A stretch of DNA of 64,000 nucleotides from Mobula hypostoma (GCF_963921235.1 NC_086108.1:51214001-51278000); one strand, 5' to 3'. Positions 2,319 through 35,451 are shown, counted from the stretch's first letter. Notes: generated by a model from the sequence alone, not told the origin. A program made the numbers and translations.

Positions 2319-2320
2319 TA

Positions 2321-6115: not shown

Positions 6116-7110
6116 AGACCAAGACAAGAGGAGATTAAAGCCAGGCCTTTCTAGTATGCTAGGCAAATTGTTAACATCAAACTAGTGACTGATTTTTTTT
6201 TTTGTTACCTAATGTAGAGACACAAGGCAAATTTGGGAAGAATTTAGTTACAGATCACCAACTACTTCAATAAAAAAAATAGAGCAAGCTCTAGGGACTT
6301 ACGGCCAATTCCTGTTCCAGTATTTACACTCAAATAACTAATGCCAAAGCAACAGTGATGAAGCTAGGACAAAGATTAATGCAGTCCATCAATTTTGCAA
6401 TGAGCTCCAGCAGGTCAGAAATAGCCAGAATATTTTAAATTGTCCTTTAAAATCAAACAATGAGGGAAAAAAAACAATCCAATGTTTTTCTTTAGCTAGA
6501 ATCAAGATGATTTTGAGTAGACACCAACGAATACAAGTCTAGATTGTAATCTATATCATCATATCAGAAACTATTCTAATTGGCTTTCAGGAAGCAACAT
6601 GAGAAAATCTAAACGTACTCAGCTTCTTCAGAAAGGAGGCTTCTCCCAATTTTTTACTCACTCAAAAACCAGCCACTCAAGGAAACAGAGTTACAGACAT
6701 CAATTTGTCAAGGTATCCTAGCCTAAGACCATTAAAGGCACATGATCACAGTACAGCCTACCCTTAAGTTATGGGAGACCTGACATTCCGAGAAAACGGA
6801 CCCCATCATGATTTTGGATATATAAAGCTGTGCTATCAGCACATGAGTAAAGAAAAAAATTGTGTTCAGTTACTTTTTATACATAAATCTTATGAGATCA
6901 TATTTTATTCCGTATCTCAAATGTTTCGGTAGCGATTTGTGAATTCTGTAAGGGTGAATTTCTGTATCATGAACAGCTATAACATAGACCTGCATAGCAA
7001 CTCAAAATGTTGCTAAAAACAGAAACAAAACAGCAATGAAATAAGAAGCAACACACATCAAAGTTGCTGGTGAACGCAGCAGGCCAGGCAGCATCTCTAG
7101 GAAGAGGTAC

Positions 7111-7146
7111 AGTCGACGTTTCGGGCTGAGACCCTTCGTCAGGACT
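7111..7146 (-). ncRNA. Minimal type I hammerhead ribozyme motif in the Penelope terminal repeat
   Basis: Minus strand reads AGUC-CUGACGA-A-GGGU(CUCA)GCCC-GAAAC-GUC-GACU. CUGANGA and GAAA cores, stem II and stem I (AGUC/GACU) are intact; GUC cleavage triplet; self-complementary ACGU in place of stem III. Confidence 0.8.
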
Positions 7147-7543
7147 AACTGAAAGAAAAGATAGGAAGAGATTTGAAAGTGGGAGGGGGACGGGGAGATC
7201 CAAAATGATGGAAGACAGGAGGGGGAGGGATGGAGCTAAGAGCTGGACAGTTGATTGGCAAAAGGCATATAAGGCTGGCGAAGGGAGAGGATCATGGGAC
7301 GGGAAGCCTAGGGAGAAAGAAACTGACTATGAAAGGGGGAGGGGAGCCAAGAGGATGGAGAGCAGGCAAGGAGTTATAGTGAGAGGGACAGAGGGAGAAA
7401 AAAGAGAGAGGGAAAAAGGAGGAAAATTTTAAAATATTAAATTAATAAATAAGGGATGGGGTACGAAGGGGAGGAGGGGCATTAACGGAAGTTAGAGAAG
7501 TCAATGTTCATGCCATCAGGTTGGAGGCTACTCAGACGGAATA

Positions 7544-9125
7544 CAGGTTTCCCCCACCATCCGAAGGTAGAGCGTTCTTATGAAACAGTTCATAAGCCGG
7601 AATGTCGTAAAGTGAAGAAGCAATTACCATTTATTTATATGGGAAAAATTTGTGAGCGTTCGCACACCCAAAAAATAACCTACCAAATCATGCCAAATAA
7701 CACAAAAGCCTAAAATAACAGTAACATAGAGTAAAAGCAGGAATGATAGGATGAATACACAGCCTATATAAAATAGAAATACTTTTCTATATCGTTGCTG
7801 CACTGTTCTCCGTAGCAAAAATCTCACGTAAGTGCTCTCGGCAGAAACATTTTCTCCAGTAACCTTTAAACTATGAAGCTGCCAAATCATACCAAATAGC
7901 AGATAAAAATACACAGCCTATATAAAGTAGAAATAATGTATGTACAGTGTAGTATCACTTACCGGGATCAGGCCGAGCACACTGATGATGGTGTGTTAGG
8001 CTGAGTCATCGGCGGGTGGAGTGGTGCAGTGGTACCCAACCTCCAGGCGCGAAGAATACAGCGGTACAGCGGAAGCCGGGACGCGCCCAGCACATCTTTA
8101 AGAAAAAAGCCAAAATAAACAAGCTAATTAATTAGGTGCCACCCGGCACGTAAATGTTGGCCCAGATCAGAGGCGATGCAATCGGCAATCACTTCTGACT
8201 GGGCCGACATTTACGTGCCAGGTGGCACCTAATTAATTAGCTTGTTTATTTCGGCTTTTTTCCCTTAAAGATGTGCTGGGTGCATCCTGGCTACCACTGC
8301 GTTCTCCACGGCAATGTATTGGTCCACGGCCCAGGGGTTGGGGTGGTGGGACACTGGGGTGTCATCTCATCATCATCTGTTTCCATCAGGACAGGCAGGT
8401 CATCTTCTTCTATGTCTGCCTGCCTCGATGTTGAAGGTCACGGTTCGTTGTCTGCTGTGACTGATGTGGAAGACTTGAAAAACGACAGTATGCTTGACTG
8501 CTTAGCCTCCTGCATTTTTCTATCATACAGTTCTTTGTAAGCACTCAAACCATCTTGCAAATATGCCCTAAAACTACGTACCCTTTCAAAATTAAAGTCG
8601 TACTTTTCTACAATCATTGCAGAGAAAATCTCATGCAATTGCTTCACGTTCAGATCCTGGACGACTTCACTTTCGGTCCGTTTGCTACTGCATTCGGTTT
8701 CGATTGTTATCCTTTCCTCTTCCAATTGCATCAGCTCTTCACCTATCAGTTCTCAGTCACGGGATGCCAAAACCTCTTCAACATCATCTTCGTAAACTTT
8801 CAAACTCACTTCATCCTTACTTCGTTCACCACGATCAAAATGCTTAATTATGTCTAGTTTTACGCTAAGTGTAACACCCTTACGAGCTCTTTTAGGCTTT
8901 TCCGATACCTTAGAACTCATCTTGCTAACGGCTGCTCACAGGTACGTATTTAAGCAATGCCAGCTAGAATGCAGTTCCAGGGGAGGTGCTTGGCAGCTCA
9001 GGGCGCACACTGCCTTTTTTCGTAACAGTGAAAACAGGTAACTAATGTAGGTCTTTCGTAACAGCAAGGTTTCATAAAGCGAACGTTCGAAAAGCGGGGG
9101 ACACACACACACACAGACACATCTG
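7544..9125 (-). mobile_element. Tigger/pogo-like non-autonomous copy 2, inserted in the Penelope left arm
   Basis: Same TIRs as copy 1. The TA duplication splits GGAA-TA-TAAGGTG, which is uninterrupted in the right arm near 11661-11673. Right TIR is disrupted by a (CA)n run. Confidence 0.9.
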
Positions 9126-9205
9126 TATAAGGTGTTGTTCCTCCAGCCTGAGTGTGGCTTCAGCTTGACAGTAGAGGAGGCCGAGGATAGACATATCAGA
9201 ATGGG

Positions 9206-9431
9206 CATCAAAGTTGCTGGTGAACGCAGCAGGCCAGGCAGCATCTCTAGGAAGAGGTACAGTCGACGTTTCAGTCCGAGACCCTTCCTCAGGACTCGGA
9301 CTGACGAAGGGTCTCGGCCTGAAACGTCGACTGTACCTCTTCCTACAGATGCTGCCTGGCCTGCTGCGTTCACCAGCAACTTTGATGTGTGTTGCTTGAA
9401 TTTCCAGCAGCTACAGAATTCCTGTTGTTTG
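9206..9431. mobile_element. 226-bp palindromic Penelope-derived mini-element with two opposed hammerhead motifs
   Basis: Inverted arms about 9206-9292 and 9301-9387. Hammerhead cores at 9261-9296 (-) and 9301-9332 (+). TSD CATATCAGAATGGG / CATATCAGAATAGG at 9192-9205 and 9432-9445. Confidence 0.88.
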
Positions 9432-12039
9432 CATATCAGAATAGGAATGGGACGTGTATTTAAAATGTGTAGCCACTGGGAGATCCTGCTTTCTCTGGCG
9501 GACAGAGCGTAGGTGTTCAGCAAAACGGTCTCCCAGCCTGTGTCGGGTCTCGCTAATATACAGGAGGCCATACAGGGAGCACCGGACGTAGTATATCACA
9601 CCAGCCGACTCACAGGTGAAGTGTCGCCTCACCTGGAAGGACTGTCTGGGGCCCTGAATGGTGGTGAGGGAGGAAGGAAGTGTAAGGGCATGTGTAGCAC
9701 TTGTTCCACTTACAAGGATAAGTGCCAGGAGGGAGATCAGTGGGAAATGATGGGGGGCGGGGAGAAAGGACAAGGGAGTCACGTAGGGAGCGATCTCTGC
9801 AGAAAGCAGAAGGGGGGGAGGGAAAGTTGTGCTTGGTGGTGGGATCCCATTGGAGGTGGCAGAAGTTACAGAGAACTATGTTGGACCTGGAGGCTGGTGG
9901 GGTGGTTGGTGAGGACAAGGGGAACCCTATTCCAAGTGGGGTGGCAGGAAGATGGGGTAAAACCCGCCAATAAGGGGGGTGCTGTTGTAGTCTAGCGTCC
10001 TGAGCTCTACCTTGCCAAGGCACAGCTACAACTCGCAGATACCTCCTATTTACCCTTCGATCATGACCCCACTAAGGAGCACCAGGCCATTGTCTCCCAC
10101 GCCATCACCAACTTTATCAGCTCAGGGGATCTCCCATCCACTGCTACCAACCGTATAGTTCCCACACCCCGCACTTCCCGTTTCTACCTCCTATCCAAGA
10201 TCCACAAACCTGCCTGCCCAGGTAGACCAATTGTCTCAGCTTGCTCCTGCCCCACTGAACTCATTTCTGCATACCTCGACACAGTTTTATCCACCCTTGT
10301 TCAATCCCTTCCCACCTATGTTTGTGACATTTCTCATGCTCTGAATTTTTTCAATGATTTTAAGTTCCCTCGCCCCCACCGCTTTTATTTTCACCATGGA
10401 TGCCCAGTCCCTATATACCTCCATCCCCCACCTGGAAGGTCTCAAAGCTCTCCACTTCTTTTTGGATTCCAGACCTACCCAGTTCCCCTCTACCACCACT
10501 CTGCTCCGTCTAGCGGAATTAGTCCTTACTCTTAATAATTTCTCCTTTGGCTCCTCCCACTTCCTCCAAACTAAAGGTGTAGCCATGGGCACCCGTATCG
10601 GTCCCAGCTAAGCCTGCCTTTTTGTTGGCTTTGTGGAACAATCCATGTTCCAAGCCTATACCGGTATCTGTCCCCCATTTTTGCTTCACTACATCGACGA
10701 CTGCATTGGCACTGCTTCTTACACGCATGTTGAGCTCGGTGACTTCATTAACTTTGCCTCCAACTTTCACCCTGCTCTCAAGTTTACCTGATCCATTTCC
10801 AACACCTCCCTCCCCTTTCTTGATCTTTCTGTCTCTATCTCTGGAGACAGCTTATCTACTGATGTCTACTATAAGCCTACAGACTCTCACAGCTATCTGG
10901 ACTATTCCTCTTCCTACCTTGTCTCTTGCAAAAATGCCATCCCCTTCTCACAATTCCTCCATCTCCGCCGCATCTGCTCTCAGAATGAGGCTTTTCATTC
11001 CAGGACGAAGGAGATGTTTTCCTTTTTTAAAGAAAGGGGCTTCCTTTCCTCTACCATCAACTCTGCTCTCAAAGGCATCTCTCCCATTTCAGGCACATCT
11101 GCTCTCACACCATCACACCATCCTCCCGCCAGCCCACGAGAAATAGGGTTCCCCTTGTCCTCACCTACCACCCCACCAGCCTCCAGGTCCAACATATAAA
11201 TCTCTGTAACTTCCGCCACCTCCAACGGGATCCCACCACTAAGCACATCTTTCCCTCTCCCCCCTTCTGCTTTCTGCAGGGATCGCTCCCTACGTGACTC
11301 CCTTGTCCATTCGCACCCCCATCCCTTCCCACCGATCTCCCTCCTGGCACTTATCCTTGTAAGCGGAACAAGTGCTACAACTGCCCTTACACTTCCTCCC
11401 TCACCACCATTCGGGGTCCCAGACAGTCCTGTGAGTCGGCTGGGGTGATATACTGCATCCGGTGCGGCCTTCTATATATTGGCGAGACCCAACGCAGGCT
11501 GGGAGACCGTTTCGCTGAACACCTACGCTCTGTCTGCTAGAGAAAGCAGGATCTCCCAGTGGCCACACATTTTAATTCCACGTCCCATTCCCATTTTGAT
11601 ATGTCTATCCACGGCCTCCTCTACTGCCAAGATCAAGCCACACTCAGGTTGGAGGAACAACACCTTATATTCCATCTGGGTAGCCTCCAACCTGATGGCA
11701 TGAACATTGACTTCTCTAACTTCCGTTAATGCCCCTCCTCCCCTTTGTACCCCATCCCTTATTTATTTATTTTTTCCCCTTTTTTTCTCTCTCTCTCTTT
11801 TTTCTCCCTCTGTCCTTCTCACTATAACTCCTTGCCTGATCTCCATCCTCTGGGCTCCTCTCCCCCTTTCTTTCTCCCTAAGCTTCCTATCCCTTGATCC
11901 TCTCCCTTCTCCAGCCTTGTATGCCTTTTGCCAATCAACTTTCCAGCTCTTAGCTCCATCCCTCCCCCTCCTGTCTTCTCCCAACATTTCGGATCTCCCT
12001 CCCCCACTTTCAAATCTCTTAACTTCGCTTCTTTCAGTT

Positions 12040-12075
12040 AGTCCTGACGAAGGGTCTCGGCCCGAAACGTCAACT
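12040..12075 (+). ncRNA. Minimal hammerhead ribozyme motif in the Penelope right-arm terminal repeat
   Basis: AGUC-CUGACGA-A-GGGU(CUCG)GCCC-GAAAC-GUC-AACU; cores intact, one stem I mismatch. Confidence 0.72.
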
Positions 12076-13248
12076 GTACCTCTTCCTATAGACGCTGCCT
12101 GGCCTGCTGTGTTCCACTAGCATTTTGTGTGTGTTGCTTGAATTTCCAGCATCTGCAGATTTCCTCTTGTTTGAGCAATGAAATAATGTATTTTGAACAA
12201 ACTATTTATTTTTCATATTTAGAAAGGAGTTAATCTATATCACGTCAAATCCGCAGACAAGGTCATATCATTAACCTCATTTTGATCTAGTTTGGTGCTT
12301 TGATTTACACATTTAAAATTCAAATGTTATTTAACAAAAAGATTTACTGCAAACCACTGCTTTGTGCATTTCTGTGACAAATTTGACCAATCTCAGGATG
12401 ATTTTCATGTGATTTAGGCTATGCCATATCATGCAAATAAAAAGTTTCCATGCTGCTGCCTATATCTACTCTTGTAATTGAATTTTGCTTATAAATCTGA
12501 CAGCAACAGAATACTATTGTGGTAATCAGTTCATGGTGGGGAGGGTGTTGCCCTGAAGACAAGTCAGGTGTACAATCAGAACAGAGTAGACAATATATCC
12601 TCACAAACGTATATAACGGCATCAAACTTCCCAAAATGCAATACCTCACATCTATCTGGATTGAAAGCCATATTGCAATTCTCAGCCCAAATGCCTAGCT
12701 GATCAAGATCCTCCTGTAATTTTTCATATCCTTCTACACTCTCAAGACCACCACCTAATACACCTAAGACTGAAAAGAAAGATCACTTATGGAGAAGCTG
12801 TAAAAATGTCAACAGAACAGAATAATGCTCCTAATGAACAGGGAGCAATAGGGATGTGAGAGCTGCAACAAAGAACAAATGACAGGATTTATGTAGACAA
12901 AAAGGCTCTAGTAACATTCATTGCAGGAGTGATTAATAGTACGGCTGAGGTAAAGTCAAAAAGTGATAAAATTCAGCTGGTGGTCAAAGCAGCAGTGAAT
13001 GATTTAGGGTTAGTAGGACTGACGTGGGAAGAAGTGAGGGAGAACCTCACTAATCAGTCAAGCCAGGAAGTGTCATGAGTTGGCTAATACTAATTTTGGT
13101 GATTCTTTTGCAATGGAATGCAAGGAGCTTACTGGCCAATAGCCAGGAATTCAAGCACTTTATTAAAGAAATGGTTGTAAACCGGATATAGTATGTATTC
13201 AGGAAACTTGGTTGAAACCAACTTTAGACTTTGTGGTGTATGGGTACA

Positions 13249-14077
13249 CAGGTGTCCCCCGCTTTTCGAACGTTCGCTTTACGAAACCTCACTGTTACGA
13301 AAGAGCTACATTAGTTCCCTGTTTTCGCTAACAGAAGGTGTTTTCACTGTTACGAAGAAAGGCAGCGCGCGAAAAAAATTAGCGTGTGATAAAAGGCAGC
13401 GCGCGCCCCAAGCAGCCGCTCCTCTGATTTCCCCTCTGATCTGGGCTGACATTTACATGCTGGGCGGCACCTAATTAATTAGCTTGTTTATTTCGGCTTT
13501 GTGCTGTGTGCCTCCCGGCTACCGCTGCATTCTCCGCGGATCGGTATCATTTCGCTTCGCTGCCTGGAGGGTGGGGGCCACTGCACCACCCAAACTCCAA
13601 CGTTCAGTCTAACACACCATCATCAGTGTGCTCGGCAAGCTGTCTTCCCGATTCCCGTAAGTGATACTACACTGTACATACATTATTTCTACTTTATATA
13701 GGCTGTGTATTTTTATGTGTTATTTGGTATGATTTGGCAGTTTCATAGCTTAAAGGTTACTAGAGAGAGTGTTTTTGCCAACAGCGCTTGCGTGAGATTT
13801 TCACTACGGAGAACAGTTCAGGCAATGATTGTGGAAACGTATTTCTACTTTATATAGGCTGCGTATTTATCATATCATTCTTGCTTTTACTATACGTTAC
13901 TGTTATTTTAGGTTTTATGTGTTATTTGGCATGATTTGGTAGGTTATTTTTGTGTCTGCGAACGCTCACAAAATTTTCCCATATAAATAAATCGTAATTG
14001 CTTCTTTGCTTTACGACATTCCGGCTTACGAACCGTTTCATAGGAACGCTCTACCTTCGGATGGTGGGGGAAACCTG
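13249..14077 (+). mobile_element. Tigger/pogo-like non-autonomous copy 3 (829 bp, MITE-like) inside the LINE endonuclease
   Basis: CAGGTGTCCCCCGC...GGGGGAAACCTG followed by TA (left flank reads CA). Interrupts VVYGY|TMIRKDR. Confidence 0.88.
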
Positions 14078-17000
14078 TACAATGATAAGGAAAGATAGAA
14101 TTCTAGGGGGAGAAGGGGGTTGTGCAATGTTAATCAAACAAGGTATACCATAGAGGATATTGGAAAAAGGAGATGATCAGGAATACATTGTGGTGGAAGT
14201 GTGGGAGAGAGGGGAGGGAGTGATTATAATTAACTACTACAATCCATGTAAAAGGTTGGATTTGGACAGCCTATTAAGGATACAAGGACAAAACAGACAA
14301 AGTAGGATGGTGTGCAGATTTCAATGCTCATAGCACAATATGGGGGGATACGATTACAGATTCAAATGGAAAGGTAATTAAAGATTTGATGGAAGGAAGG
14401 GATTTGGTGTGTATGAATGATAGTAGAGGAATAAGGATAAACTTAACAACAGGAACTAAGTCAGTATTAGATATTACGTTAGTGTCTAATACGTTGGCTG
14501 GCGTTAGTAACTGGGGAGTTTGGACTGTTTAAGCAGTGGGCAGTGATCACTACCCAGTTTTATGTTCAGCGGGTGAAATAATTGAAGTAAGACCAGGTGA
14601 TGGAATCCCAAAGTGGGTGCTTGGAAAAGCAGATTGGGCTAAGTTCCAGAAGTTGAGTGAAGAGGCATTGACAGAGATTGACATTTCTGGAAATACAGAT
14701 GAATTAAACAGTCAGGTGACTTCAGCAATTATTATGGCAGCAGAAGGATCTATACCCAGGAATAAAAATAGGATGAATAGATAACTGGTACCATGGTGGA
14801 CAGAGGAATGTCAGGCTGTAAAAAACAGAAACAGAGCATTCAGGCTAGTTAAAAGAACCCATAATATGCAGCACTTGCCTCAATATAAGAAGGCACAGGC
14901 AGTGGTGAAAAGAACTATACGTCAAGCTAAAAGGGGAAGTTGGAGGAGTTTTTGCAACAAAATAGGAAGAACAACACCTGTAGGAGAGGTATGGGGAATG
15001 ATTAAGAGGATGGGAGGAGATAGAAGGGAATGGGAATATCCAGTAATGATATCTGAGGAGGAAACGGCAGTCTCCAGTAGGGATAAGGCTGAGATCATGG
15101 CCAAGTTGTTTGTACAGATACACAGTTCAGAAAATTTGTCTGAAGAAGGGAGAAGGAGAAGAGAAAGAACAATGAATCAACACCTAGATGTATTAAACAG
15201 GAGGGAAGAAACAGATGATATAATTGATGATCCATTTACGCTGGCAGAAATGGTGAGAGCAATAAAGAGGTCGAGACCAACCTCCCCAGGGAAAGATCTG
15301 ATATGCTACGTTAAAAAAATCTAGAAGGAGCGCTCTTGAAGTTGCTGCATTTTTATAACAGAATGTGGCAGGAGGGCAGATTACCAAGTGCATGGAAAGA
15401 AGCAGTAGTAATTCCAATAAGGAAACCTGACAAGGATCCGTCAAAACCCACTAGCTACAGACCGATAGCACTAACATCAAATATATGTAAAATAATGGAA
15501 AGGATGATAACAGAAAGGTTATCGTATGAGCTTGAGAAGAGAGGAATGCTGGCAAGTTACCAGAGTGGTTTTAGGAAGGGAAGGAATTCCATGGACTCAG
15601 TGATAAGGTTAGAGACTGAAATAAGAAAGGCCCAGTCAAATAAAGAGTCAGTAGTTGCATTGCTTTTTGACATCGAAAACTCTATGGTATGATGTGGAAG
15701 GAAGGACTGTTAATTAAACTGCACAAGATGGGGGCTGGTGGGAGAGTTTTTAATTGGATTAAAGATTTTTTGTTTGGTAGAAAAATTCACGTTCGGATTG
15801 GATCAGAATTATCAAACCAGTACATAGTGGGAAATGGCACACCTCAAGGTAGTGTGTCTAGCCCATTACTTTTCATCATTATGATCAATGATATCTTCAC
15901 AAAGGCATCAGTGGATATAGGTAGGTCACTGTTTGCGGATGATGGGGCCTTGTGGACAGGAGGCAGAAACATGGAGCATATGGTCAGGAAACTACAAGGA
16001 GCAATTGATGAAGTGGTGGAGTGGGGTTATGATCTGGGATGTAGATTTTCAGTAGAAAAAACTCAAACTGTATTTTTCACCATGAAAAGAACTGAGGTAG
16101 GGAAGAAGTTAAGGATGTATGGGACTGAATTAGAAAGGGTTGGATCATTTAAATTTCTGGGAGTTATATTTGATTCATGATTAACATGGTTATATGATCA
16201 CCATATCAGGAAAGTTGAGGAGAAATGTAAAAAAGTAATAAATGTGACGAGATGTTTGACTGGTAGGGAATGGGGAGCAAGTTGTTCAGCGTTGAAGAGA
16301 ATGTATGTGGCTTTAGTAAGATCTGTGTTGGACTATGGAAATATAGCATATGGATCAGCAGCTAGGTCTCTTATAAGGAAACTGGATGTGATTCAGTCTC
16401 AGGCTTTGAGAGTGTGCAGTGGGGCTTTTAAGACATCACCAGTATCAGCCCTACAAGTAGAAATGGGAGTAACGCCTTTGGAACTAAGAACGATGTAATT
16501 GACAGCAAACTACTGGGCTAATTTGCAGGGACACAATGATTCTCACCCTGCAAAAGAAGTGTTGTAGGAGTGCTGGGAAAATGGGAGGTTTCAGAGGGAT
16601 AACGTTAGTCAGGTAAGGAATGATATTGTTACAGAATGTGGAGTGTTTGATCTAAGGATAAGTCCTTCAGTAGTTTATCCGATTGTAGCTCCATGGAAGC
16701 TTGTATGGCCTGACATAGACTGGCATTTGTTAAAGGTGAAAAGGAAAGGAAAATATAAAACTGATTTGATGAGTGCATTTAACTGTCATGTGATGGAAAA
16801 TACAGTGATTATACTCAGATTTATACGGATGGTGCTAAGGAACCTGAAACAGGAGTGACAGGGTTTGGGGTGGCTATACCAGCAAAAGAAATTGGAATCA
16901 GCAGAAGAACATCTAATAAATTAGAGGTGTATACAGTGGAGATGCTGGCATTGTTGGTTGTGTTGCGATCGGTGGAGAAAGCTAGACAAGTCAAAGTTTG

Positions 17001-17135
17001 ATATGCTCAGAGTCATCCTCAGTTCTAGCAAGTTTAAGGTCTTTTCACTCAAACAGTCGGCAAGATGTACTTTATGAAGTCCTTCAGTCAGTCACAAGAA
17101 TTGCAAATCAGGGAGGTCAGGTAAAATTTTTATGG

Positions 17136-18726: not shown

Positions 18727-18873
18727 CACCACCTATTTTTAGTAATATCCTCAAACTTTCTAACAATATACATACGCGTGTGTGCGCACATATGGAGATG
18801 GGTGCGTATATGGATGGGCGCACATGTATGTATATCGTTAGAAAATTTGAGGATATTACTAAATCAGGTGGTG
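18727..18873. repeat. Inverted repeat (about 48-bp arms); centre of a CR1-derived foldback split by the Nimb-like LINE
   Basis: tttagtaatatcctcaaactttctaacaatatacatac against gtatgtatatcgttagaaaatttgaggatattactaaa (36 of 38 complementary). The right arm continues as the CR1 RT-like peptide KFEDITKSGG. Confidence 0.85.
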
Positions 18874-19918: not shown

Positions 19919-19944
19919 GTATATATGTACATACACATACACAA

Positions 19945-22480: not shown

Positions 22481-22808
22481 CTAATAGTTATTTCCCCCAA
22501 GCAGTAAACTGATCAACACCTCCACCCACTAACCCACCCTTCCACAATCCCCATCACCACTCCTATATCATTTTCTGTCAGTTACCTTTTGTACAGACAC
22601 TCATATACCAAGCATTACATTATGGACATACAATCAACCTATGTATCAAATCTATCTTACGTACTTATATTTACTGTGTTTTTTTTAACCATTATGTTCT
22701 CTACGTTGTATTTTTTTTGGGCTGCATCTGATTAACAGTAACTATTATTTCATTCTTCTTTACATTTGTGTATTAGAAATCACATTAAACAATGTTGAAG
22801 AGGAACAT

Positions 22809-23046
22809 ACCCAAAACGCTGGAGGTACTCAGCAGGCCAGGCAGCATCTATGGAAAAGAGCAAATAGTCGATGCTTCAGGCTGAAACTCTTCATCAAGAC
22901 TGCATCATAAAAGATGCTGATGAAGGCTTTCAGCCCGAAATATTGACTGTTTACTTTTTTCCATAGATGCTGCCTGCCTGCTGAGTTCCTCCAGCATTTT
23001 ATGTGTGTATTGCTTGGATTTCCAGCATCTGCAGATTTTCTTGTCT
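22809..23046. mobile_element. 238-bp palindromic Penelope-derived mini-element (older), with degenerate hammerhead motifs
   Basis: Inverted arms around a gcatc-ataaaa-gatgc centre. CTGATGA...GAAA at 22917-22940 (+); degenerate mirror at 22866-22901 (-). Perfect TSD TTGAAGAGGAACAT at 22795-22808 and 23047-23060. Confidence 0.85.
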
Positions 23047-23099
23047 TTGAAGAGGAACATGCAGGCCACTAATTCTTGACATAAAGCAGATGCTACTTT

Positions 23100-23810: not shown

Positions 23811-24460
23811 GAACCTCTCGTCTTTTCTCTCCCTTTACTGTACTCCTGTCTATCCCAACTAAATTAACCACAGTATTATTCCCAATTTTTCATCAGCCAC
23901 TCTACTGCTCAGGTACTGCGGTGGGTTAAAACAGCTACTGACTCAAACATTAATCAACAAAATGCAATTTACCAATTTTAGCAACTGAGCTGAATGAATG
24001 ACCTTTGGTTAAAGTCTATTCTGTTGGTTCCTTGAATACTTTTGGTTAAACTGAAGAAAAGGCCATGACAGCAGAATTCATGAATTTATCTAACCAAAAT
24101 CTCTTTGATTTCAATTTGACACATCATTCTTCCCTACTAATTTCCAAGATCACTTGGGCAGCAGTTAAGTAATAATACTTCTGGATGTAAACTAAAAAGG
24201 ATGTTAATGTGAAATCAAAATGGTTCAGCAACTTTTCATAATAAAAAGTCACAGTACTGAATATCAAAACCCATCCCCAATTGAAAATTCACATCACTTT
24301 AACAAGGACTTATAAGGATTTGTAGGGACTCGATCGCAGAATGTTAATTAAAGAGATCAAAACATTCCTAAGTTTGTACATTTCGCCACAAATAGCATAA
24401 CAAGAGACGTCTGCAAATCTTTATGGTTGCTAGTTGTAATTACTTATGTAACAAAGACTA

Positions 24461-24706
<246 letters not shown>

Positions 24707-26842: not shown

Positions 26843-29215
26843 CCGTAAATTCCGGTGTATAAGCCGAGAATGTGGCCCTAAATTTTGGTCCTAAAATTAG
26901 AGGGTCGGCCTATACAGAGGGTGCCAACTTTGGAAAAACAAATACACGGAAGACAGGTCGTATTTATTGCCTGTTCTTGAGTCAAATTCGTTCCACTGTC
27001 GATGCATGAATTCTTTGAATGGTTTGTTTAAACTCGCATCTAGTGGCTGGAGCATGGACATCAAACCACTGGGGATGACTGCAATGTCCATATTTTCAGC
27101 TTTAAATGCTGCTATTGTCTCACCTGACAAGTGCGCTTTGAACATGTCCCAGACAAGTAGCGACTTTTCCTTCCCGAAACCTTCGGGACGTCGATGCCAC
27201 ACCTCTAACTCACTTCAAGCAACCCACTTCATCCATCCAGCAGCGTTTTTGGACGTAAACAACAACACCCCACGGAATTTTCTGAGCAGTTTTTGTTTTT
27301 TGTTTCAACACAAGATCACGTCTATTCATAAATCGGATGCACCAACTTCGCGTAGCTTTGAAATTTTCGCTGACCTCACGGTGTTTTTCGTCCCATTTCA
27401 ACGCCTGAACTCGAATCATTTCTCTGGTAACAATGTATCCAGACAATCGCTGGTGATTCACCCACTCTACAACTTTTTCTTCCAGTTCCGGCCACTGGAA
27501 TGTTTTCCCGCGGTTTGCAAATTTTGCCTTTGGCATTTCCCTCAGCGTGCCCTCTGCCTTTCTCCACTCTCTCCCTTGTGTCACATTTACACCAAACTTC
27601 TTAGTAGCTGCAGAATTATTCGTTCCTTGAGCAAAATCAACAACCTTCAGCTTGAAGCCAGCATCATATCACATTCATTTTAATCTTTTGTACATGGTGG
27701 TTGCAAACTCAATACTGAGTACACGTACTGATCCCGCCACCCCGTGTTATGTTTTAATGAGATTACAATAGGCGCTAAATGGTTTCATGGGGGTTACATT
27801 TCAGAGGATTCTTTACCATTGGAGACCTAATCCAAAATTTCCCTCCCTGATTTATTTATTAAGAATTCGCTTATAACGCTCTACAATGTGTAGGCCTGTT
27901 TTCTTAGCAGGTGGATGATGTGGATGGAGAATTGGTTAGCAGACAGGAAGCAAAGAGTGGGAATAAACGGGACCTTTTCAGAATGGCAGGCGGTGACTAG
28001 TGGGGTACCGCAAGGTTCAGTGCTGGGACCCCAGTTGTTTACAATATATATTAATGACTTGGATGAGGGAATTAAATGCAGCATCTCCAAGTTTGCGGAT
28101 GACACGAAGGTGGGTGGCAGTGTTAGCTGTGAGGAGGATGCTAAGAGGATGCAGAGTGACTTGGATAGGTTGGGTGAGTGGGCAAATTCGTGGCAGATGC
28201 AATTTAATGTGGATAAATGTGAAGTTATCCACTTTGGTGGCAAAAATAGGAAAACAGATTATTATCTGAATGGTGGCCAATTAGGAAAAGGGGAGGTGCA
28301 ACGAGACCTGGGTGTCATTATACACCAGTCATTGAAAGTGGGCATGCAGGTACAGCAGGCGGTGAAAAAGGCGAATGGTATGCTGGCATTTATAGCGAGA
28401 GGATTCGAGGACAGGAGCAGGGAGGTACTGCTGCAGTTGTACAAGGCCTTGGTGAGACCACACCTGGAGTATTGTGTGCAGTTTTGGTCCCCTAATCTGA
28501 GGAAAGACATCCTTGCCATAGAGGGAGTACAAAGAAGGTTCACCAGATTGATTCCTGGGATGGCAGGACTTTCATATGAAGAAAGACTGGATGAACTGGG
28601 CTTGTACTCGTTGGAATTTAGAAGATTGAGGGGGGATCTGATTGAAACGTATAAAATCCTAAAGGGATTGGACAGGCTAGATGCAGGAAGATTGTTCCCG
28701 ATGTTGGGGAAGTCCAGAATGAGGGGTCACAGTTTGAGGATAAAGGGGAAGCCTTTTAGGACCGAGATTAGGAAAAACTTCTTCACATAGAGAGTGGTGA
28801 ATCTGTGGAATTCTCTGCCACAGGAAACAGTTGAGGCCAGTTCATTGGCTATATTTAAGAGGGAGTTAGATATGGCCCTTGTGGCTACGAGGATCGGGGG
28901 TATGGAGGGAAGGCTGGGGCAGGGTTCTGAGTTGGATGATCAGCCATGATCATAATAAATGGTGGTGAGGCTCGAAGGGCCAAATGGCCCACTCCTGCAC
29001 CTATTTTCTATGTTTCTATGTACTGGTTTACAAAATTTTCAGGTTCCGGATCTGGCAAAGCTGAGTACTGGCATGTGAGATCTTGGGATCTTTTCTGGTT
29101 AAATCAAAAACCTCTACAAAAGGGGTTAGCTTATACAAAAGTTACAAGAAAAAATCACTTTTTTAACCTTGAAAATGGGGGGGGGCGGGGTCAGCTTATA
29201 CTCCAGAATATACGG
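26843..29215 (-). mobile_element. pogo-family (POGK/Passer-like) DNA transposon, internally deleted and interrupted by a CR1
   Basis: TIRs CCGTAAATTCCGGTGTATAAGC...GCTTATACTCCAGAATATACGG with TA on both flanks. Brinker-like YDAGFKLKVV, CENP-B HTH WPELEEKVVEWV...FKATRSWCIRFM, and DDE LLVWDMFKAH...LQPLDASLNKPFK. Confidence 0.88.
27914..29021 (+). mobile_element. CR1 LINE 3' portion, relatively young (291-codon open RT fragment)
   Basis: SGVPQGSVLGP, KFADDTK, RPHLEYCVQFWSP, RRLRGDLIE; tail ttctatgtttctatgt. Confidence 0.93.
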
Positions 29216-29280
29216 TAGCCCAAAAATTTATATTTAGCGGTTGAGAACAGATTTTAAACAACAAAATCTCATTACAAGTA

Positions 29281-30446
29281 CAGTGAATTCCAGTTAAATG
29301 GGCCATCAGTTAATCGACACACTAACTTAAAGAACAAAAATGGGCCATGGTAACATAGTAGTTAGCTTGACACTCTTACAGTCTGGAATGTAGCAGTTCT
29401 GAGTTCAATCAAGGCACTTTCTAAGGAACCTCTGCACATTTTTCCCCTGGAATGAGTGGGTTTTCACCGGGTGCTCCCGTGATTACATGAGGGTTAGATC
29501 AGAGTCGTCGGGGATTGCTGGGCAGCGCTGCTCGAAGGGCCTATTACATTTCCTACTGCCCACTGTATCTCTAAATAAAATAAACAAAACTAAATGAAAC
29601 CCAATTAAGAAAATAATCAGGATTCCCTTTGTTTATTTGGGACACTATGCCTTTTAATTAGGACAGGAGGCTGTTGCCAAACAGTTTGCTATCGTGTGGC
29701 TATTAGACACTACACCAAGCATAGAGCTTTAGTTGCACGTGCTTGTGTTATGTTATTCATTGGGGTGATGGATGCCGGTTCAAAAAGCTGTGGTTTTTAT
29801 CATTTTGCTTTTTATTTTGACTTTAAAAAATTTCAGATCCTTGCCAAGATGCCAAGAAAAGATCTGACATTATCCAAAAAAAATTACTCTACTGTACCAA
29901 ATTAAAAGCTATCCTCTTTTATCGTGCCGCATCGGATGGTTCCTTTTGCTACAAACACACAACACTATCAGGTTCAAAGAAAGCAATGTATCACATAACT
30001 GTGTTGTGTTGCTCAAATATGTCAGGAACTGATTTTAAAAAATTGTTAGTTATTGGGAAAAACCTTAAGCCTCAATGCTTTAAGATAGTTCACCAAACAA
30101 GTACTATTGGTATAATCTAAATTTATTGTTAAATTACAGCACTACTTCATGCAGTTAGGCAATGAAGGCAGTCCATTATCTGCACTAGGTAGCTGTGCTG
30201 ATTTTGTTCATTTACAGCCGATCATAGGAACACGGCAGCATACATTGGATGAATTCCTCCGCTGATAACTATATAGTAGTGGTATTCTAATTTCTTCTGT
30301 ATTTACTTTAAATACAATTTGTTTCTCAGTTAAATGGCAGCTTGTCTTTTTTATAACTTTTTAACTATTTTGAAGAAGCTTCGGCTAATTGGGGGAGCCA
30401 CTTAATTGAGCTAAACTGATTTGTGCCAGTTAACAGGAATCCACTG
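29281..30446 (+). mobile_element. Tigger-like family 2 non-autonomous DNA transposon
   Basis: TA-CAGTGAATTCCAGTTAA ... TTAACAGGAATCCACTG-TA; remnant of a transposase start MPRKDLTLSKK near 29850. Confidence 0.75.
29341..29585 (+). mobile_element. Degraded tRNA-derived SINE (V-SINE-like) nested in the DNA transposon
   Basis: A-box-like taacatagtagtt, B-box-like gagttcaatc, central gtgggttttcaccgggtgctcc motif and an A-rich tail ctctaaataaaataaa. Confidence 0.55.
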
Positions 30447-32699
30447 TACTATCAACGCAGACACAATGTAATTATCTGCAGCTGAGAACAAAGAGACAAA
30501 ATATCCTGACATGATAAATAGAAGTCAATAGATTTTCATATTAAAAGAGCAAATCTTTCATAAATTATGATCTAAATTCAAAGTTCAAGCCTCTGCAATA
30601 TAAATTCCTCTATTTCACAATAATATTTTCTGTCTGGATAGGCTTTCAACACTTCAGATTCATAAGTTAATCTTCAAAACTGATGGAGGCTCATAGATCC
30701 AAAGGCATTTAAAAAAGAAAAATGAAAAGTTTGGTAATTTTCTTACATTTACAAAAAATGAATATGTTTGCATTAAAATGATTCTACGATTCAAATTAAT
30801 AACATTGCAGCCAGAAGATTTAACCACCAGCCTAATGGTTTGATAATACTAAGAATGTATACTACCTGAATTAGGTGATAAGCTACTGAAAGATAACAAG
30901 AGATTAATGGTGTTACATTAGGTATACTGGACTTGGATTATTAAGATTAATTACCATGACACAGAATATTTCAACAAAGTGTGTAATATACATTTGCAAA
31001 CAGTTAACTGTGAAAAAAAATGTGTATTCAACTGTCAGCAAAGAGCTAGCTTTTACTTAAAAGCCACCATGGTTGGTCAAAATTTCATTTCCTTCCAACC
31101 CTCTGAAGGTTTTGCCAAGAATTTTTGAATGTTTTTTCTTTGTCCCAAGGGGTCTGCAGACAATGCAATACTACTTTCCACCCAGATAAAGCTCTGTGAA
31201 GTAATCAATGAATGATCACCACATACAGTTTCTGGCACTGCACGAGCAGAAAGTTGCTTTTGCAAATGGAATGCTGGAACCTATTCTTGTACAACAATGA
31301 AGTGAATTTGGCAGAGCAAGAAAAATACTTCAAATCCACACCATTACAAATAATACTTGTACCCTTGATTAATCCCCCCACCTCAATATATATGGAAAAT
31401 TATATACATACTGTCGTCTGCTCCTGGCTTTCCAACCCTTCTCATAACAATAAATCCCATCTTTGCTTTATAGTCATAAAGGGGCTGAGGTGGGCATAGA
31501 AGAGGGCAATATTACAAAAGTAGGGAAAAAAATATGAAAATTATGTACCTACATTCCTTACTGGATGCAATAAAAGGAACTAAAGTTAACAGGGAAAAGC
31601 CCTACTCAGATTAGACACCATCTGCCTGTTTTTTTCCCCCAACGTGGCCCAGGCACACCTTTCTACTGAGAGCTCTGTTCTCACAAAAAAAAAGCATGGC
31701 ATAGTGCAGCATAGAGGCTGCTTCAGCACAAAAACAGCTGTATGACAAAATGGCTTTGATAGACTTCAAGATCATGCCCAGAATATCAGTAGCTGTTAAA
31801 AGTTCACACTGTTTATTGGAAATTATTTTGGATTCATTAATATTGAAAATCACTTGCAATAAAACAAAAATGCTAAATAGCTGAAGATTAAATAAAATTA
31901 CACATTAAAAGTTTAACTTCATTTAGTAAAAAACTAAAATTCTAGTAATCTTTCTCCTTGTAGCCAATTTATCCCATTTACTTCCATAGGATTGCTTTTC
32001 AGCCTGTCACTGGGGAAGCTTGCTGAAATACGAGCTGCCGTATTGGATTTCATAACAAATCCATCCAATAATTCATGAGCAAACAGCAGCACGGTCAACC
32101 AGCTAGAAAATGCTGCTGACAGTTCTATAAGGCAATGGCAGCATCAAATTTTGGGACTTGTACAGAGAAATGCAAAAAGTTAGCCCCAGGAACTTTGAAT
32201 CGGCATCCAAAATCAGATATTGACGTCTGGAGGCTCTGAAATTCCTGGTGAAGTGATAAAGAGGTTAAAGCTTTTGACACATTTGTAATACCAGACCTCA
32301 AATTTTAAAATATTACAAAGGGGTAACAGGAGATGAGGAAACGGGGGACAAGGAAATAACTTCAGGCAAGCCACTAGCCCAATTTTCCATTATATTATGC
32401 CTCAAGAGTTTTATGCATGAGGATTATAGGCTTTCTGGATATGCAGTCTTTCTTAAAAAATATGATGTCAATCGTTAACATTTCAGTTACATAACTCAAG
32501 TGCAAAAAAAAAACCCACTAATAACATTAGAACATAATGCAACAGAGAAACAAGCCTTTTGGCCTACCAACTATGCTGACCATGGTGCTATCTTAAACTG
32601 CACATCACCAGCACTTAGTCTATATCACTCTATTCCCTACCTACTCATATGCCTATTTTGTACTTCTTAAACATTGCTGTTATTTCTGCTTCAAACACA

Positions 32700-33346
32700 A
32701 ATGAAATGTTCGCATTCATTTCTAGAGGTATAGGATATAAGAGCAGGGATGTGATGGTGAGGCTCTATAAGGCACTCGTGAGACCACACTTGAAACTATT
32801 GTGTGCAGTTTTGGGCTCCTTATTTTAGGAAAGATGTACTGACATTGGAGAGGGTTCAGAGAAGATTCACGAGAATAATTCCAGGAATAAAAGGGTTACC
32901 GTATGAGGAAAGTCTGCCAGCTCTTAGGCTGTATTCCCTGGAGTTCAGGAAAATGAGGGAGGATCTCAATGAAACATTCAGAATGTTAAAAGGCCTGAAC
33001 AGATTAGTTATGGCAAAGTTATTTCCCATGGTAGGGGATTCTAGGACAAGAGGGCACGACTTCAGGATTGAAGGACATCCTTTTAGAACTGAGATGCGGA
33101 GAAATTACTTTAGTCAGAGTTTAGTAAATCTGTGGAATTTGTTGCCACTAGCGGCTGTGGAGGCCAAGTCATTGGGTGTATTTAAGGCAGAGATAGATAG
33201 GTCCTTGATTAGCCAGGGCATCAAATGGTTGGGGTGAAGACAGGGGAACGAGAATGACTGGAAGAATTGGATCAGCCCAGGATTGAATGGCGGAGCAGAC
33301 TCAATGCACCGAATGGCCTATTTCTGCTCCTATATCTTATGGTCTT
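32700..33346 (+). mobile_element. CR1 LINE 3' fragment
   Basis: QFWAPYFRKDVLTLERVQRRFTR...TRGH; tail ctgctcctatatcttatggtctt. Confidence 0.9.
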
Positions 33347-35317
33347 TCTTAGCAGCATGTTCCACATATCTTTCACTGTGTAAAATAGGTTTCCCATAAA
33401 ATCTCATTTAGACTTTTCCTACTCTCAACCAGTGTTTGACATTTTCATCCTCGGGGTAAAAATCTACCCACCCAATCTATGCCTCTTTTTTTTTGTAATT
33501 TATTTTTTATTGAATTTCATCATCAAACATTTCCATAAGATGTATTTCAGATACTGTACATATATATCATAATATTTGTCACAAATCTCCATATAATATT
33601 CATCTGAGATATACACTTACAGAAAGGAGAGGAAAGAAAGAACAATCGAAAGAATAAAACTATGTACAGAGTAGGGTTACAACATATTCATTGACTTGTG
33701 AGAATAAAATCAGGCCTATGAGGTGTTATGTAGTTAAACCATTTTTTTCCAGTATGAATCAAATTCTTCTAACTTATAGTTAACAGATGCTGTTATCTTC
33801 TCCATTTTGTAAATGTCCATTGTAATTTCCATACATACATTTAAAGTTGGGCTCTCCTGTGATAACCATTTCCTGGTAAGGGTCTTTTTACCAGCCACCA
33901 GCAGTACATTCATTAAATATTTATCTCTTTTCAACCATTCTTGAGGTATATACCCAAAATATATGGTCTTACTCTCCAAGGGTATTTCACATTTAAAGAT
34001 GTCTTGTGGGGCATTATGTATCCCACTCCAATAGTCTTTGATAACGGAGCATTCCCAGAAAATATGATAATGGTTTGCATTTTGATTTCCACAATTTCTC
34101 CAGCAAACAGGGAGTTTACTACCATAATGGGATTTCTGAGAGGGTGTAATATCATATCAAGTTTTTCCACGCAAACTCCCTCCATTTCTGTGAACTGGTA
34201 CACTTCCATTGATACCTTCATATTATTGTCCAATCTTCCTCAGATATTATTATCCCTCCTTCCTTCTCCCATTTTGTTTTAATGTATGAAGTCGAATGTG
34301 TTTTAAGATTTGACAAGATCCTTATATACGCTTGAAATTATTCTACTACCATTGTCTGAATTATATGCTTTTCTAAATAACTCTATCAGACATGTACTTG
34401 CCTTGGTTACATTTTTAACTGTCCTATTAACATACTGTCGCATCTGTAAATACCAGTAAAAGTCTTGTTTCTCTAATAAGTGTTTCTCTCTGAGCATTTC
34501 AATACTGAACAGTGTTCCTTCTTTCATTATATTGCAAATAGCTGTTATTCCTTTAGCTGTCCAGTCCTTAATTCTAGCATCCAGTTTATTCGGCGTAAAA
34601 TCCGAGTCATATGCACACCACTTGAGAACTGCAATGACTCTCTCTAGTTTATATTCTTTTATAATAGTTTTCCATATTTTAAGAGCCCATTTTACTTGTC
34701 AATATTATTTATGAAACTTTGTAGGTTATCAGTCTGTACGAGGATGGAAAGTATCCTCTCCTCAATGTTTTGCCATTGAGGGCCATATGATAGGTTGCAC
34801 CAGCATATCACAGCTCTCAACTGTGCTGCAAAATAATAATCTCTAAGAGAAGGTAGGCCGAATCCCCTCTTTTCCTTGGCTAATTGCAAAGTTTTGAGAC
34901 GAACCCTAGGCCTTTTACCTTGCCATATATATCTTGATAGCATCTTGTTCCATTCTTTGAATGGATTCATCTCTATTGGTAGGGTCTGAAAGAGATATAG
35001 TAGTCTGGGCAGTATATTCATTTTAATAGATTTAATCCTTGAACTGAGACCAAGAAAAGGAATTAGGTTCCATATATCTTCCTTAATTTTTTATATATAG
35101 GCTGATAATTGCATTCTGATAACTTTGCCAAATCTTTTGGCATAATGATGCCCAAGTATTTGACGGACTCTGTTTGCCATGCCCAAGGATATCTACTTAC
35201 AATTTCTCTTGGTGGGCTATAGTTATATGAAAGTAGTTGGGTTTTATCTATGTTGATCTTGCATCCTGATAATTGGCCATATTGTTCAAAAGATTGCATC
35301 AATTTAGGTAAAGAGTA

Positions 35318-35451
35318 AACACAAAATAATCTACAGATGCTGGGGTCAAAGCAACACTCACAACACACTGGAGGAACTCAGCAGGTGGGGCAGCACCCGT
35401 GGAAAAGAACAGTCAACGTTTCAGGCCGGAACCCTTCGTCAGGACTGAAAA
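35318..35451 (-). mobile_element. 134-bp single-arm Penelope-derived mini-element inserted in the L1 RT
   Basis: Same terminal-repeat sequence as the other copies. Perfect TSD AGGTAAAGAGTA at 35306-35317 and 35452-35463. Removal restores YLGQPTYSLPKLMQSF. Confidence 0.9.
35411..35446 (-). ncRNA. Minimal hammerhead ribozyme motif
   Basis: Minus strand reads AGUC-CUGACGA-A-GGGU(UCCG)GCCU-GAAAC-GUU-GACU; cores and stem I intact, GUU triplet. Confidence 0.75.

Follow-up and report, generated by a model that had tools for sequence, protein, structure and literature searches.

The window, by which we mean the whole 64,000-nucleotide stretch of Mobula hypostoma DNA analyzed here (GCF_963921235.1 NC_086108.1:51214001-51278000), carries four insertions that contain terminal sequence of a Penelope-like element (PLE). 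They lie where a preliminary description of this DNA had placed them, and each is flanked by a target-site duplication (TSD), measured at 11-13 bp (Table 1). Three of the insertions are short. The fourth, which had been described as a 5.1-kb coding element, is indeed a TSD-flanked insertion but not a single coding element, because it is a composite of truncated arms, holds two later nested insertions and has a broken open reading frame. In its direct arm (9960-12173), remnants of RT and GIY-YIG survive, and 12 stops interrupt one frame over 9996-11540. The nested repeat at 7544-9125 returned 41 HSPs in a random 1.6-Mb sample of the genome, the longest among the matches listed being 76-87% identical. 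The earlier observation that arms of the short units start near the ribozyme core holds for 5/5 arms of the three units, all of which begin no more than about 5 nt from the first base of stem I. Among the older relics that had been proposed, those at 55430-55508 and 50674-50757 are solid and acceptable, respectively, whereas those at 4430-4510 and 48310-48430 are weak, with 1 and 2 matches among 273 sample arms (E about 3e-4) and a CTGATGA...GAAA remnant discernible by eye.

Table 1. Features of the PLE-derived insertions in the window (positions counted from its first nucleotide; HHR, hammerhead ribozyme motif).
Feature	Position	Strand	Remarks
Composite PLE insertion unit	7045-12173	.	Inverted and direct 5'-truncated arms, head to head; junction ~9959
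TSD of 7045-12173 unit	7032-7044 and 12174-12186		13 bp; agcaatgaaataa
Inverted arm of 7045-12173, outer part	7046-7543	-	Reference unit 3026-3479; tailless; HHR motif 7111-7146
Unrelated 1.58-kb interspersed repeat, nested, not PLE	7544-9125	.	Divides inverted arm of 7045-12173
Inverted arm of 7045-12173, middle piece	9126-9205	-	Reference 2945-3027
Nested 226-bp head-to-head PLE unit	9206-9431	.	Inside inverted arm of 7045-12173
226-bp unit, tailless inverted arm	9206-9296	-	HHR 9261-9296
226-bp unit, tailed direct arm	9297-9431	+	HHR 9297-9332
TSD of 226-bp unit	9192-9204 and 9432-9444		catatcagaat(g/a)g; one mismatch
Inverted arm of 7045-12173, inner piece	9432-9958	-	Reference 2437-2961; GIY-YIG-like remnant
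Direct arm of 7045-12173	9960-12173	+	Reference unit 1287-3513; 3'UTR, HHR 12040-12075, tail
238-bp head-to-head PLE unit, older	22809-23048	.	Both HHR cores decayed
238-bp unit, tailless arm	about 22809-22901	-	
238-bp unit, tailed arm	22913-23046	+	
TSD of 238-bp unit	22797-22808 and 23049-23060		12 bp; gaagaggaacat
134-bp unit, a single 5'-truncated arm	35318-35451	-	Sense strand minus; second PLE subfamily; HHR (GUU triplet) 35411-35446; tail at 3' end
TSD of 134-bp unit	35306-35317 and 35452-35463		11-12 bp; aggtaaagagta
Old decayed PLE terminal arm	50674-50757	+	Acceptable, weaker support: matches 12/273 sample arms
Old decayed PLE terminal arm	55430-55508	-	Solid: matches 68/273 sample arms

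A minimal HHR motif is present at the reported places, in degenerate form in both arms of the oldest copy, at 22.8 kb. The pattern CTGANGA-N6-30-GAAACGTC has four matches in the window (7115-7142 and 9265-9292 on the minus strand, 9301-9328 and 12044-12071 on the plus strand) and is absent from 100/100 dinucleotide shuffles; in the copy at 35 kb the cleavage triplet is GTT. The motif has the parts expected of a minimal HHR: the core CUGANGA...GAAA, a GUH triplet, helices I and II, and a helix III whose loop is palindromic. All 19 alignment columns that are at least 90% conserved fall within it, and its stems are paired in 79-85% of cells, compared to 8-48% when the partners are slid. A search with Rfam for hammerheads gave no match at the gathering score, nor at E up to 10, and the stems showed no covariation above shuffled controls.

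The short units derive, as had been proposed, from the 3' end of a PLE, from the HHR to the tail. Aligned to a natural unit of 3513 nt, arms cover either its final 100-135 nt or up to 2.2 kb. A full-length natural relative (L042) matches RVT_1 and then GIY-YIG in Pfam (E 2.5e-5 and 4e-4), at scores that lie below the curated cut-offs (24.5 bits against 29.6, and 21.0 bits against 22.6, respectively) and to that extent count against the PLE identity. The window's own PLE fragments gave no Pfam match. A piece of the open reading frame yielded 38,035 first-look candidates, 150 of which were scored. The 3513-nt units occur in tandem, with starts about 3515 bp apart, and partial copies lie upstream at 32/32 full-length places examined; these pseudo-LTR partial tandems, together with the inverted 5'-truncated copy, are what is expected of a PLE. 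The random 1.6-Mb sample contains 273 terminal arms, those shorter than ~60 nt being under-detected by BLAST. Tailed and tailless arms are equally frequent among the 88 young ones (42 each, with 4 of other kinds), and in 15/15 young two-arm units the arms stand head to head, one tailed and one tailless, as they do in the two-arm units of the window. TSDs of 9-15 bp and a one-sided tail of ~35 nt are likewise insertion signatures of the PLE type, and we infer that PLE machinery is the source of the short units. Outside the window, we also encountered a real non-autonomous PLE derivative of 424 bp.

The preliminary description had read the short units as a long-lived, self-propagating non-autonomous family, similar to SINEs or retrozymes, with a boundary set by the ribozyme and mobilized by the PLE enzyme. 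We regard that reading as very improbable, even though the five arm starts in the window suit it, the genome-wide excess of ends at the HHR front is real, PLE-derived non-autonomous elements exist in principle (bioRxiv 10.64898/2026.07.22.740005; PMC7229834), and one such family, differently built, is present in this genome. In the 1.6-Mb sample, however, no separate lineage is apparent, and short and long arms form a continuum. Among the 153 sampled arms that reach the HHR, 83 extend into the common 3'UTR and 2 doubtfully do so, 38 adjoin an inverted arm and 30 adjoin unrelated DNA. Furthermore, 22/29 of the closest genomic relatives of the 134-bp unit run upstream into the common 3'UTR and are thus parts of longer copies. 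A tree that includes 30 short arms and 33 long ones, although it spans only 98 aligned nucleotides and has little resolving power, shows the two classes intermixed: labels change 19 times, compared to 21.2 +/- 2.1 times in shuffles, of which 210/1000 gave 19 or fewer. Identity to the natural full-length copy is also similar, with medians of 91.8% for short and 89.8% for long arms (p 0.31).

Each of the three short units has its best match in a different terminal variant of the element, and the two variants tested (the young type and that of the 134-bp unit) also terminate longer copies. The short units stop at the tail and lack the first ~187 nt of the PLE unit, a stretch that the 424-bp derivative keeps, and the anole PLE enzyme requires RNA about 55 nt past the RT start (PMC11167929). 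Nor are there direct tandems among the window units. Their boundary precedes the ribozyme cleavage site by 32 nt, and only 1/88 young arms starts at the predicted end of the cleavage product. Very probably, then, the short units are shortened or head-to-head by-products of an abundant PLE, with no family of their own.

The suggestion that 5' ends are distributed non-uniformly is borne out by the 88 young arms, which are 88% or more identical to the reference and whose upstream UTR can be aligned. Counting from the HHR front edge, 16 ends lie at or beyond -595, 17 at -594 to -101, 3 at -100 to -31, 11 at -30 to -9, 17 at -8 to +8, 5 at +9 to +13, 1 at +14 to +31, 1 at +32 (the cut site) and 17 at +33 to +110, such that 33/88 fall between -30 and +13. 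Of the 55 ends between -100 and +103, 17 lie within a 17-nt interval (binomial p 1.4e-6). Such an excess might simply reflect alignment, given that the block from HHR to tail is conserved across subfamilies and the upstream 3'UTR is not. Indeed, use of a single reference made 23/51 arms of less than 85% identity seem to begin at the HHR front, several of 31 edge arms had C/T-rich, UTR-like upstream sequence of other subfamilies, and a reference-free test reclassified some edge arms as extending. Nevertheless, the 17/88 ends within 8 nt persist in the class that is at least 88% identical to the reference, and there are young examples with a TSD or an inverted arm exactly at the boundary. We therefore rejected an artefact as the explanation for young arms, and give it hardly any credence overall. 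The pile-up is also confined to shorter arms: among copies longer than one unit, only 1/19 ends between -594 and +110 falls in the hot zone, compared to 33/72 for shorter arms (Fisher p 0.001), and no pile-up is seen at the upstream HHR.

What might cause arms to end at this position? The account that we favor, with nearly even chances, is that the HHR front edge is where the PLE template RNA begins. In 71/83 extending arms a YYANWYY motif places its A at the first base of stem I, and A/T content reaches 83% at -32 to -25, compared to 27-32% just upstream, although both the motif and the A/T box are loose and the copies are related and non-independent. Each arm probably represents cDNA primed on one side of a staggered cut, as the activity of the anole PLE protein on both strands suggests (PMC11167929). 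On the RNA-start account, the mRNA would start at the first A of stem I. Reverse transcription that starts at the tail, beside the start of the open reading frame and near the mRNA 5' end, would reach the RNA end after 100-135 nt, leaving short copies. Against this account, of 32 copies that exceed one unit in length, 26 start upstream of -30 and a single one at 0; this requires RNAs with a more upstream start, and means that run-off from the proposed start seldom gives full-length products. In addition, the 11/88 young arms that end at -30 to -9 do so within the proposed promoter.

A bolder version, for which we would put the chances rather below even, is that the HHR sits at the extreme 5' end of the Penelope mRNA, that the pile-up marks the cap site, and that the default product in vivo is a tiny dead copy. 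In the mRNA of a single, non-tandem copy, the sole competent RT start would be the tail beside the open reading frame, 100-135 nt from the cap, and only read-through into the next unit would allow full-length copying. If true, this would account both for the flood of HHR-fronted mini-inserts and for the upkeep of active PLEs as partial tandems.

Alternatively, the initiating ribonucleoprotein (the RT, a second protomer or a protein-assisted HHR fold) might act as a barrier that halts cDNA synthesis once the first HHR has been copied, irrespective of the RNA start. In that case too, the short units would remain dead by-products. Such a barrier would fit the restriction of the pile-up to the HHR nearest the RT start, and the broad shoulder from -30 to +13 suits a footprint as well as it does scattered starts. 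The anole protein, moreover, binds near the RT start, is a predicted dimer and aids HHR folding (PMC11167929). A structural stall, however, is expected 3' of the folded motif, before it is copied, whereas here the whole HHR has been copied first. With the anole enzyme in vitro, RNA truncated at its 5' end gave a shorter product, indicating that the RT had reached the RNA end (PMC11167929), and the conserved A/T box and initiator, which are suitably spaced, favor an RNA start. We consider a barrier unlikely, though by no means negligible. As a whole, the best explanation, which we hold to be likely, joins truncated PLE by-products to the RNA-start account.

The insertions can be compared with several known systems. 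SINEs that share a 3' end with an autonomous partner are likewise short, non-coding and TSD-flanked, with an identical 3' end, but the units described here lack a head, a demonstrated internal promoter and a master-copy lineage of their own, and their lengths are continuous up to the full element. Metazoan non-LTR retrozymes, as presented in two reports (PMC7229834; bioRxiv 10.64898/2026.07.22.740005, Li, Clavereau and Pollet 2026), are similarly non-coding and HHR-bearing, related to PLE repeats and co-resident with autonomous PLEs. These retrozymes form direct tandems of 150-450 bp that run from cleavage site to cleavage site, and circular RNAs (PMC7229834; Cervera and de la Pena 2020), whereas we found no direct tandem of monomers among the window units (one single arm and two inverted pairs), which begin 32 nt before the cleavage site and have no lineage of their own. 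The retrozyme analogy thus fails on its defining features, the units being solitary or inverted and bounded elsewhere than at the cleavage site.

The likeness to the minimal HHRs of metazoan PLEs is closer. Cervera and de la Pena (2014, PMC4209133) describe a type I core (CUGANGA...GAAA) within the terminal repeat, a helix III cut down to a palindromic ACGU that is suited to dimers, and motifs that are mostly single or in opposite-strand pairs 100-700 bp apart, all of which are found here; solo and opposite-strand motifs are attributed there to truncated PLEs. The host genome and the PLE subfamilies are new relative to that work, and the motif here is a predicted ribozyme. Purified anole PAc protein (Frangieh et al. 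2024, PMC11167929) cuts and extends both DNA strands; its reverse transcription begins from two internal positions ~35 nt apart, which yields tailed and tailless ends like those of our arms. Its RNA spans the junction of repeat and open reading frame, its product runs from an internal start to the RNA 5' end, and the distance from HHR to RT start is comparable, at about 135 nt. Cleavage by the ribozyme is unneeded, the main template in vitro being unprocessed RNA. The anole products were made in vitro from a defined RNA, whereas ours are genomic copies for which the RNA start is only deduced. The two elements also seem to differ in the place of the first ATG, which in the element studied here appears to follow the tail instead of lying within the HHR region.

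In the portions of the PLE literature that we compared, we found no description of arm ends being markedly enriched at the HHR front edge. In other respects the units closely resemble the truncated and head-to-head PLE units of Arkhipova et al. (2013, PMC3846280) and of Craig et al. (2021, PMC8557442), the latter giving 5' truncation, an inverted 5' copy and a one-sided tail of 30-40 bp as the norm for PLEs. Heavy 5' truncation, an inverted adjoining copy, a one-sided tail of ~35 nt, partial tandems and short TSDs are common to both, and the units of this genome differ from those in being very small, with 40/71 of the young ones no longer than 300 bp. The four insertions are thus a known kind of PLE debris, in a host genome and in PLE subfamilies that are new.

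All four insertions that the preliminary description had marked out, with their target-site duplications (TSDs), are present in the window as described, and their origin from Penelope-like elements (PLEs) holds. The largest had been taken for one coding element; comparison with itself and with a natural full-length copy resolved it into two arms joined head to head at about 9959, where an arm is a PLE copy, often 5'-truncated, that ends at the 3' terminus and is called tailed or tailless according to whether it carries the tail of about 35 nt. There are 12 stops in the reading frame of its direct arm, Pfam searches with eight stop-to-stop fragments of the window element gave no match, and its inverted arm is broken by two insertions, an interspersed repeat and the 226-bp unit. 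The 226- and 238-bp units reproduce this layout in miniature: in each, the inverted arm is tailless, the direct arm is tailed, and the two join at the front of the hammerhead motif. The 134-bp unit is a lone tailed arm on the minus strand. Among the older relics that had been proposed, those at 55430-55508 and 50674-50757 are supported, and those at 4430-4510 and 48310-48430 weakly so.

Coordinates of the PLE insertions and associated features in the window
Feature	Position	Flanking duplication	Remarks
PLE insertion unit	7045-12173	13 bp	
Its inverted arm	7046-7543, 9126-9205, 9432-9958		unit positions 3479 back to 2437
Its direct arm	9960-12173		unit positions 1287-3513
Interspersed 1.58-kb repeat	7544-9125		unrelated to the PLE; 41 HSPs in the 1.6-Mb genome sample
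PLE insertion unit, 226 bp	9206-9431	12-13 bp, one mismatch	
PLE insertion unit, 238 bp	22809-23048	12 bp	
PLE insertion unit, 134 bp	35318-35451	11-12 bp	

The 1.58-kb repeat sits exactly within the inverted PLE arm, and its end adjoins a (CA)n run. It contains a 233-bp palindrome (8067-8299), and the longest listed HSPs to it in the 1.6-Mb sample show 76-87% identity.

PLEs are defined by a reverse transcriptase (RT) with a C-terminal GIY-YIG endonuclease, by pseudo-LTRs and inverted 5' copies, and by a tail of 30-40 bp on one side (PMC8557442, PMC3846280). In the natural full-length copy, locus L042, a partial upstream copy and an inverted arm stand ahead of the 3513-nt unit, and the ORF matches RVT_1 followed by GIY-YIG, with both scores marginally under the Pfam curated cut-offs. 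The ORF piece of the direct arm drew 38,035 first-look candidates from the 3.48-Gb assembly, 150 of which were scored. Genomic copies of the unit's first 250 nt reach 98-99% identity to the reference, some of them as direct tandems spaced about 3515 bp apart, and the family looks recently active. Young full-length units in such tandems lie at G000:C12:173178974-173182738 and G000:C2:157232120-157235885 (fetched locus pairs L207/L208 and L226/L227).

In the sense orientation, the terminal block common to the four insertions comprises stem I (AGUC), CUGACGA, a short helix II, GAAAC, GUC and GACU, followed by about 65 nt and then the 35-nt tail. A strict pattern, CTGANGA-N6-30-GAAACGTC, matches the window four times and 100 shuffles of it not once. 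Judged by its sequence, this is a predicted minimal, dimer-type hammerhead of the PLE kind with helix III cut to a palindromic ACGU, an architecture that PMC4209133 describes for PLEs. Rfam returned no hammerhead match, either for the whole window at the gathering score or for 6500-36000 at E up to 10, and the only matches it gave were miRNA-like, attributable to chance and located on the palindromic units; the minimal hammerheads of PLEs are probably too small for the Rfam models. Chance-level miRNA-like matches also fall, on both strands, on a palindromic AT/GT-rich stretch of about 110 bp at 18741-18856, which is probably a simple inverted repeat.

When 148 arms were aligned over 57 columns, all 19 columns conserved at 90% or more lay within the hammerhead motif, and its proposed pairs were formed in 79-85% of cells versus 8-48% when the partners were slid. 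Departures from the ACGU palindrome mostly replace CG with TG (22 rows) or TA (5 rows), which we read as CpG decay. Covariation in the stems did not rise above shuffled controls in two registers of helix II. Such a lack is what a conserved motif would show in copies that are decaying, and it speaks neither for nor against function.

Had the data borne out the ribozyme-bounded, SINE-like family mobilised by PLEs that had been proposed for the short units, it would have been a notable finding, but they do not. Terminal arms are abundant: 160 stretches of 10 kb (1.6 Mb in total), placed at random by a seeded script, contain 273 of them, or 267 without duplicates, at about 170 per Mb. A first census by single-reference BLAST overstated the common start of old copies because the region from hammerhead to tail aligns across subfamilies and the upstream UTR does not; it was replaced by a reference-free test and an analysis of young copies. 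In the reference-free test, 153 sampled arms reach the hammerhead front. Upstream sequence common to at least two other copies continues from 83 of these and is doubtful in 2, an inverted arm adjoins 38, and unrelated DNA adjoins the remaining 30.

Other comparisons likewise fail to set the short units apart. Each of the three in the window best matches a different terminal variant of the element. The 134-bp unit comes from another PLE subfamily, and 22 of its 29 best genomic relatives (93-95% identity) run upstream into common UTR, one ends about 25 nt upstream and six end at the front. A tree of the 98-nt block from hammerhead to pre-tail mixes the 30 short arms with the 33 long ones, with 19 label changes versus 21.2 +/- 2.1 after shuffling (210 of 1000 shuffles gave 19 or fewer), although the alignment is short and the test weak. 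Since the 5' ends of young arms are distributed as tabulated below, arm lengths form a continuum up to the full element. From these sequence comparisons we conclude that the short units are most plausibly by-products of full elements, without a lineage of their own, rather than a long-lived family.

Distribution of 5' ends among 88 young arms (0, first base of stem I)
Interval	Arms
<=-595	16
-594..-101	17
-100..-31	3
-30..-9	11
-8..+8	17
+9..+13	5
+14..+31	1
+32 (predicted cleavage product end)	1
+33..+110	17

These young arms are at least 88% identical to the natural reference, and their UTR is therefore alignable. The proposal that 5' ends are non-random is borne out: instead of spreading uniformly they cluster, with 17 of the 55 ends in -100..+103 falling in the 17-nt interval at the hammerhead front (binomial p 1.4e-6). 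The interval -30..+13 holds 33 of all 88, and density falls about tenfold further upstream. Tailed and tailless arms share equally in the ends within 8 nt of the front (9 and 8, respectively), and these 17 arms include 6 that are single and 9 in two-arm units. The cluster marks the 5' edge of the motif, meaning that the RT has copied past the whole ribozyme. Only one arm in 88 starts at the cleavage site, which rules out ribozyme-cleaved RNA as the main template and indicates that self-cleaved RNA is rarely used; with ends gathered at the front, the retrozyme-like reading is not upheld. The anole enzyme in vitro agrees, since unprocessed RNA is its main substrate (PMC11167929). The sole exception, in a 187-bp head-to-head unit of the random sample (L149:625-811) whose arms start at +32 and +38, may be a rare copy of self-cleaved RNA.

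Why, then, do copies end at the hammerhead front? One possibility, which we favor tentatively and at somewhat less than even odds from the sequence context, is that this front is where the template RNA starts, with the RT running off its end. In 71 of 83 extending arms, across subfamilies, the sequence around the first base of stem I has the YYANWYY form of an initiator-like element, and an A/T-rich box at -32..-25 is 83% A/T versus 27-32% just upstream, both being loose motifs counted on related copies. PLE terminal repeats are reported to contain a promoter (PMC2377424, PMC3846280). The anole enzyme has an internal RT start beside the repeat-ORF junction and needs RNA for about 55 nt past the start site, and trimming the RNA 5' end shortens its product (PMC11167929). 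On a single-copy mRNA, the competent RT start would lie only 100-135 nt from the 5' end, and exactly such short copies would result. Under this reading, capped RNA should be found to begin at the first base of stem I. The shoulder at -30..-9 and the many longer copies with an upstream beginning show, however, that RNA starts elsewhere too.

The same pile-up would arise if a barrier specific to the initiating ribonucleoprotein stopped cDNA at the hammerhead front, which we consider less likely. Copies longer than one unit were assessed at 32 young places from 41 loci (8 had no unit start, and 2 coincided), where the upstream partial copy starts anywhere from beyond -1265 to +88, upstream of -30 in 26 and at 0 in 1. 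Within -594..+110, the hot zone holds 1 of 19 ends from longer copies versus 33 of 72 from shorter arms (Fisher p 0.001). The hammerhead is therefore no general roadblock, and the excess of 5' ends is confined to the hammerhead nearest the RT start. Word depth in four Logan contig runs, whose RNA origin is a guess, does not inform on RNA ends: the terminal 100 nt exceed the ORF start about 1000-fold in summed depth, a contrast that looks like DNA copy number. Both readings fit the position of the excess, and a template RNA beginning at the hammerhead front is the one we prefer.

Each of the 15 young two-arm units joins one tailed and one tailless arm head to head, the same layout as in the published PLE pattern. 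The anole enzyme cuts and extends both DNA strands from two start sites that lie about 35 nt from each other (PMC11167929), an activity that the two-arm layout would fit. Arm lengths are near-equal in 9 pairs and very unequal in 6 (for example, +70 with -504), and these unequal pairs rule out snap-back of a single cDNA as the sole source.

A non-autonomous derivative of the kind envisaged in the preliminary description does exist, but it is distinct from the tiny units and has no copies in the window. On the minus strand at L086:7129-7720 (contig G000:C2, random sample), a partial upstream copy precedes a 424-nt unit composed of the parent's first 187 nt and last 227 nt or so (the 3'UTR end, hammerhead and tail). 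A 151-nt junction query found 38 further places across the junction at 78-89% identity; each of the 11 loci that were fetched has a near-full unit accompanied by an upstream partial copy or an inverted arm of PLE type, and one locus of the derivative holds a partial dimer (relatives L236-L246, L247). Unlike the tiny window units, this derivative keeps the stretch downstream of the tail, which suggests which cis parts are required of a PLE passenger. PLE-derived retrozymes have been reported in vertebrates, including one cartilaginous fish (bioRxiv 10.64898/2026.07.22.740005), and the 424-nt derivative may correspond to those cartilaginous-fish repeats.

Of the interpretation offered earlier, then, PLE origin and non-random ends stand, and a separate family and retrozyme-like propagation do not. 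The window insertions are PLE insertions of an ordinary sort, truncated and head to head, for which descriptions go back to 2005-2014, and add further instances to a known type of debris; Cervera and de la Pena report that most minimal hammerheads stand alone or in pairs on opposite strands, separated by 100-700 bp, and call them 'probably related to truncated PLEs' (PMC4209133). What the insertions still offer is a trace, left in the genome, of a transposition mechanism that is poorly understood, and the pile-up is a modest, testable clue to it: ends lie at the hammerhead's front edge instead of its cleavage site, and only at the hammerhead nearest the RT start, in agreement with the uncleaved RNA template and internal RT start found in vitro in 2024 (PMC11167929).
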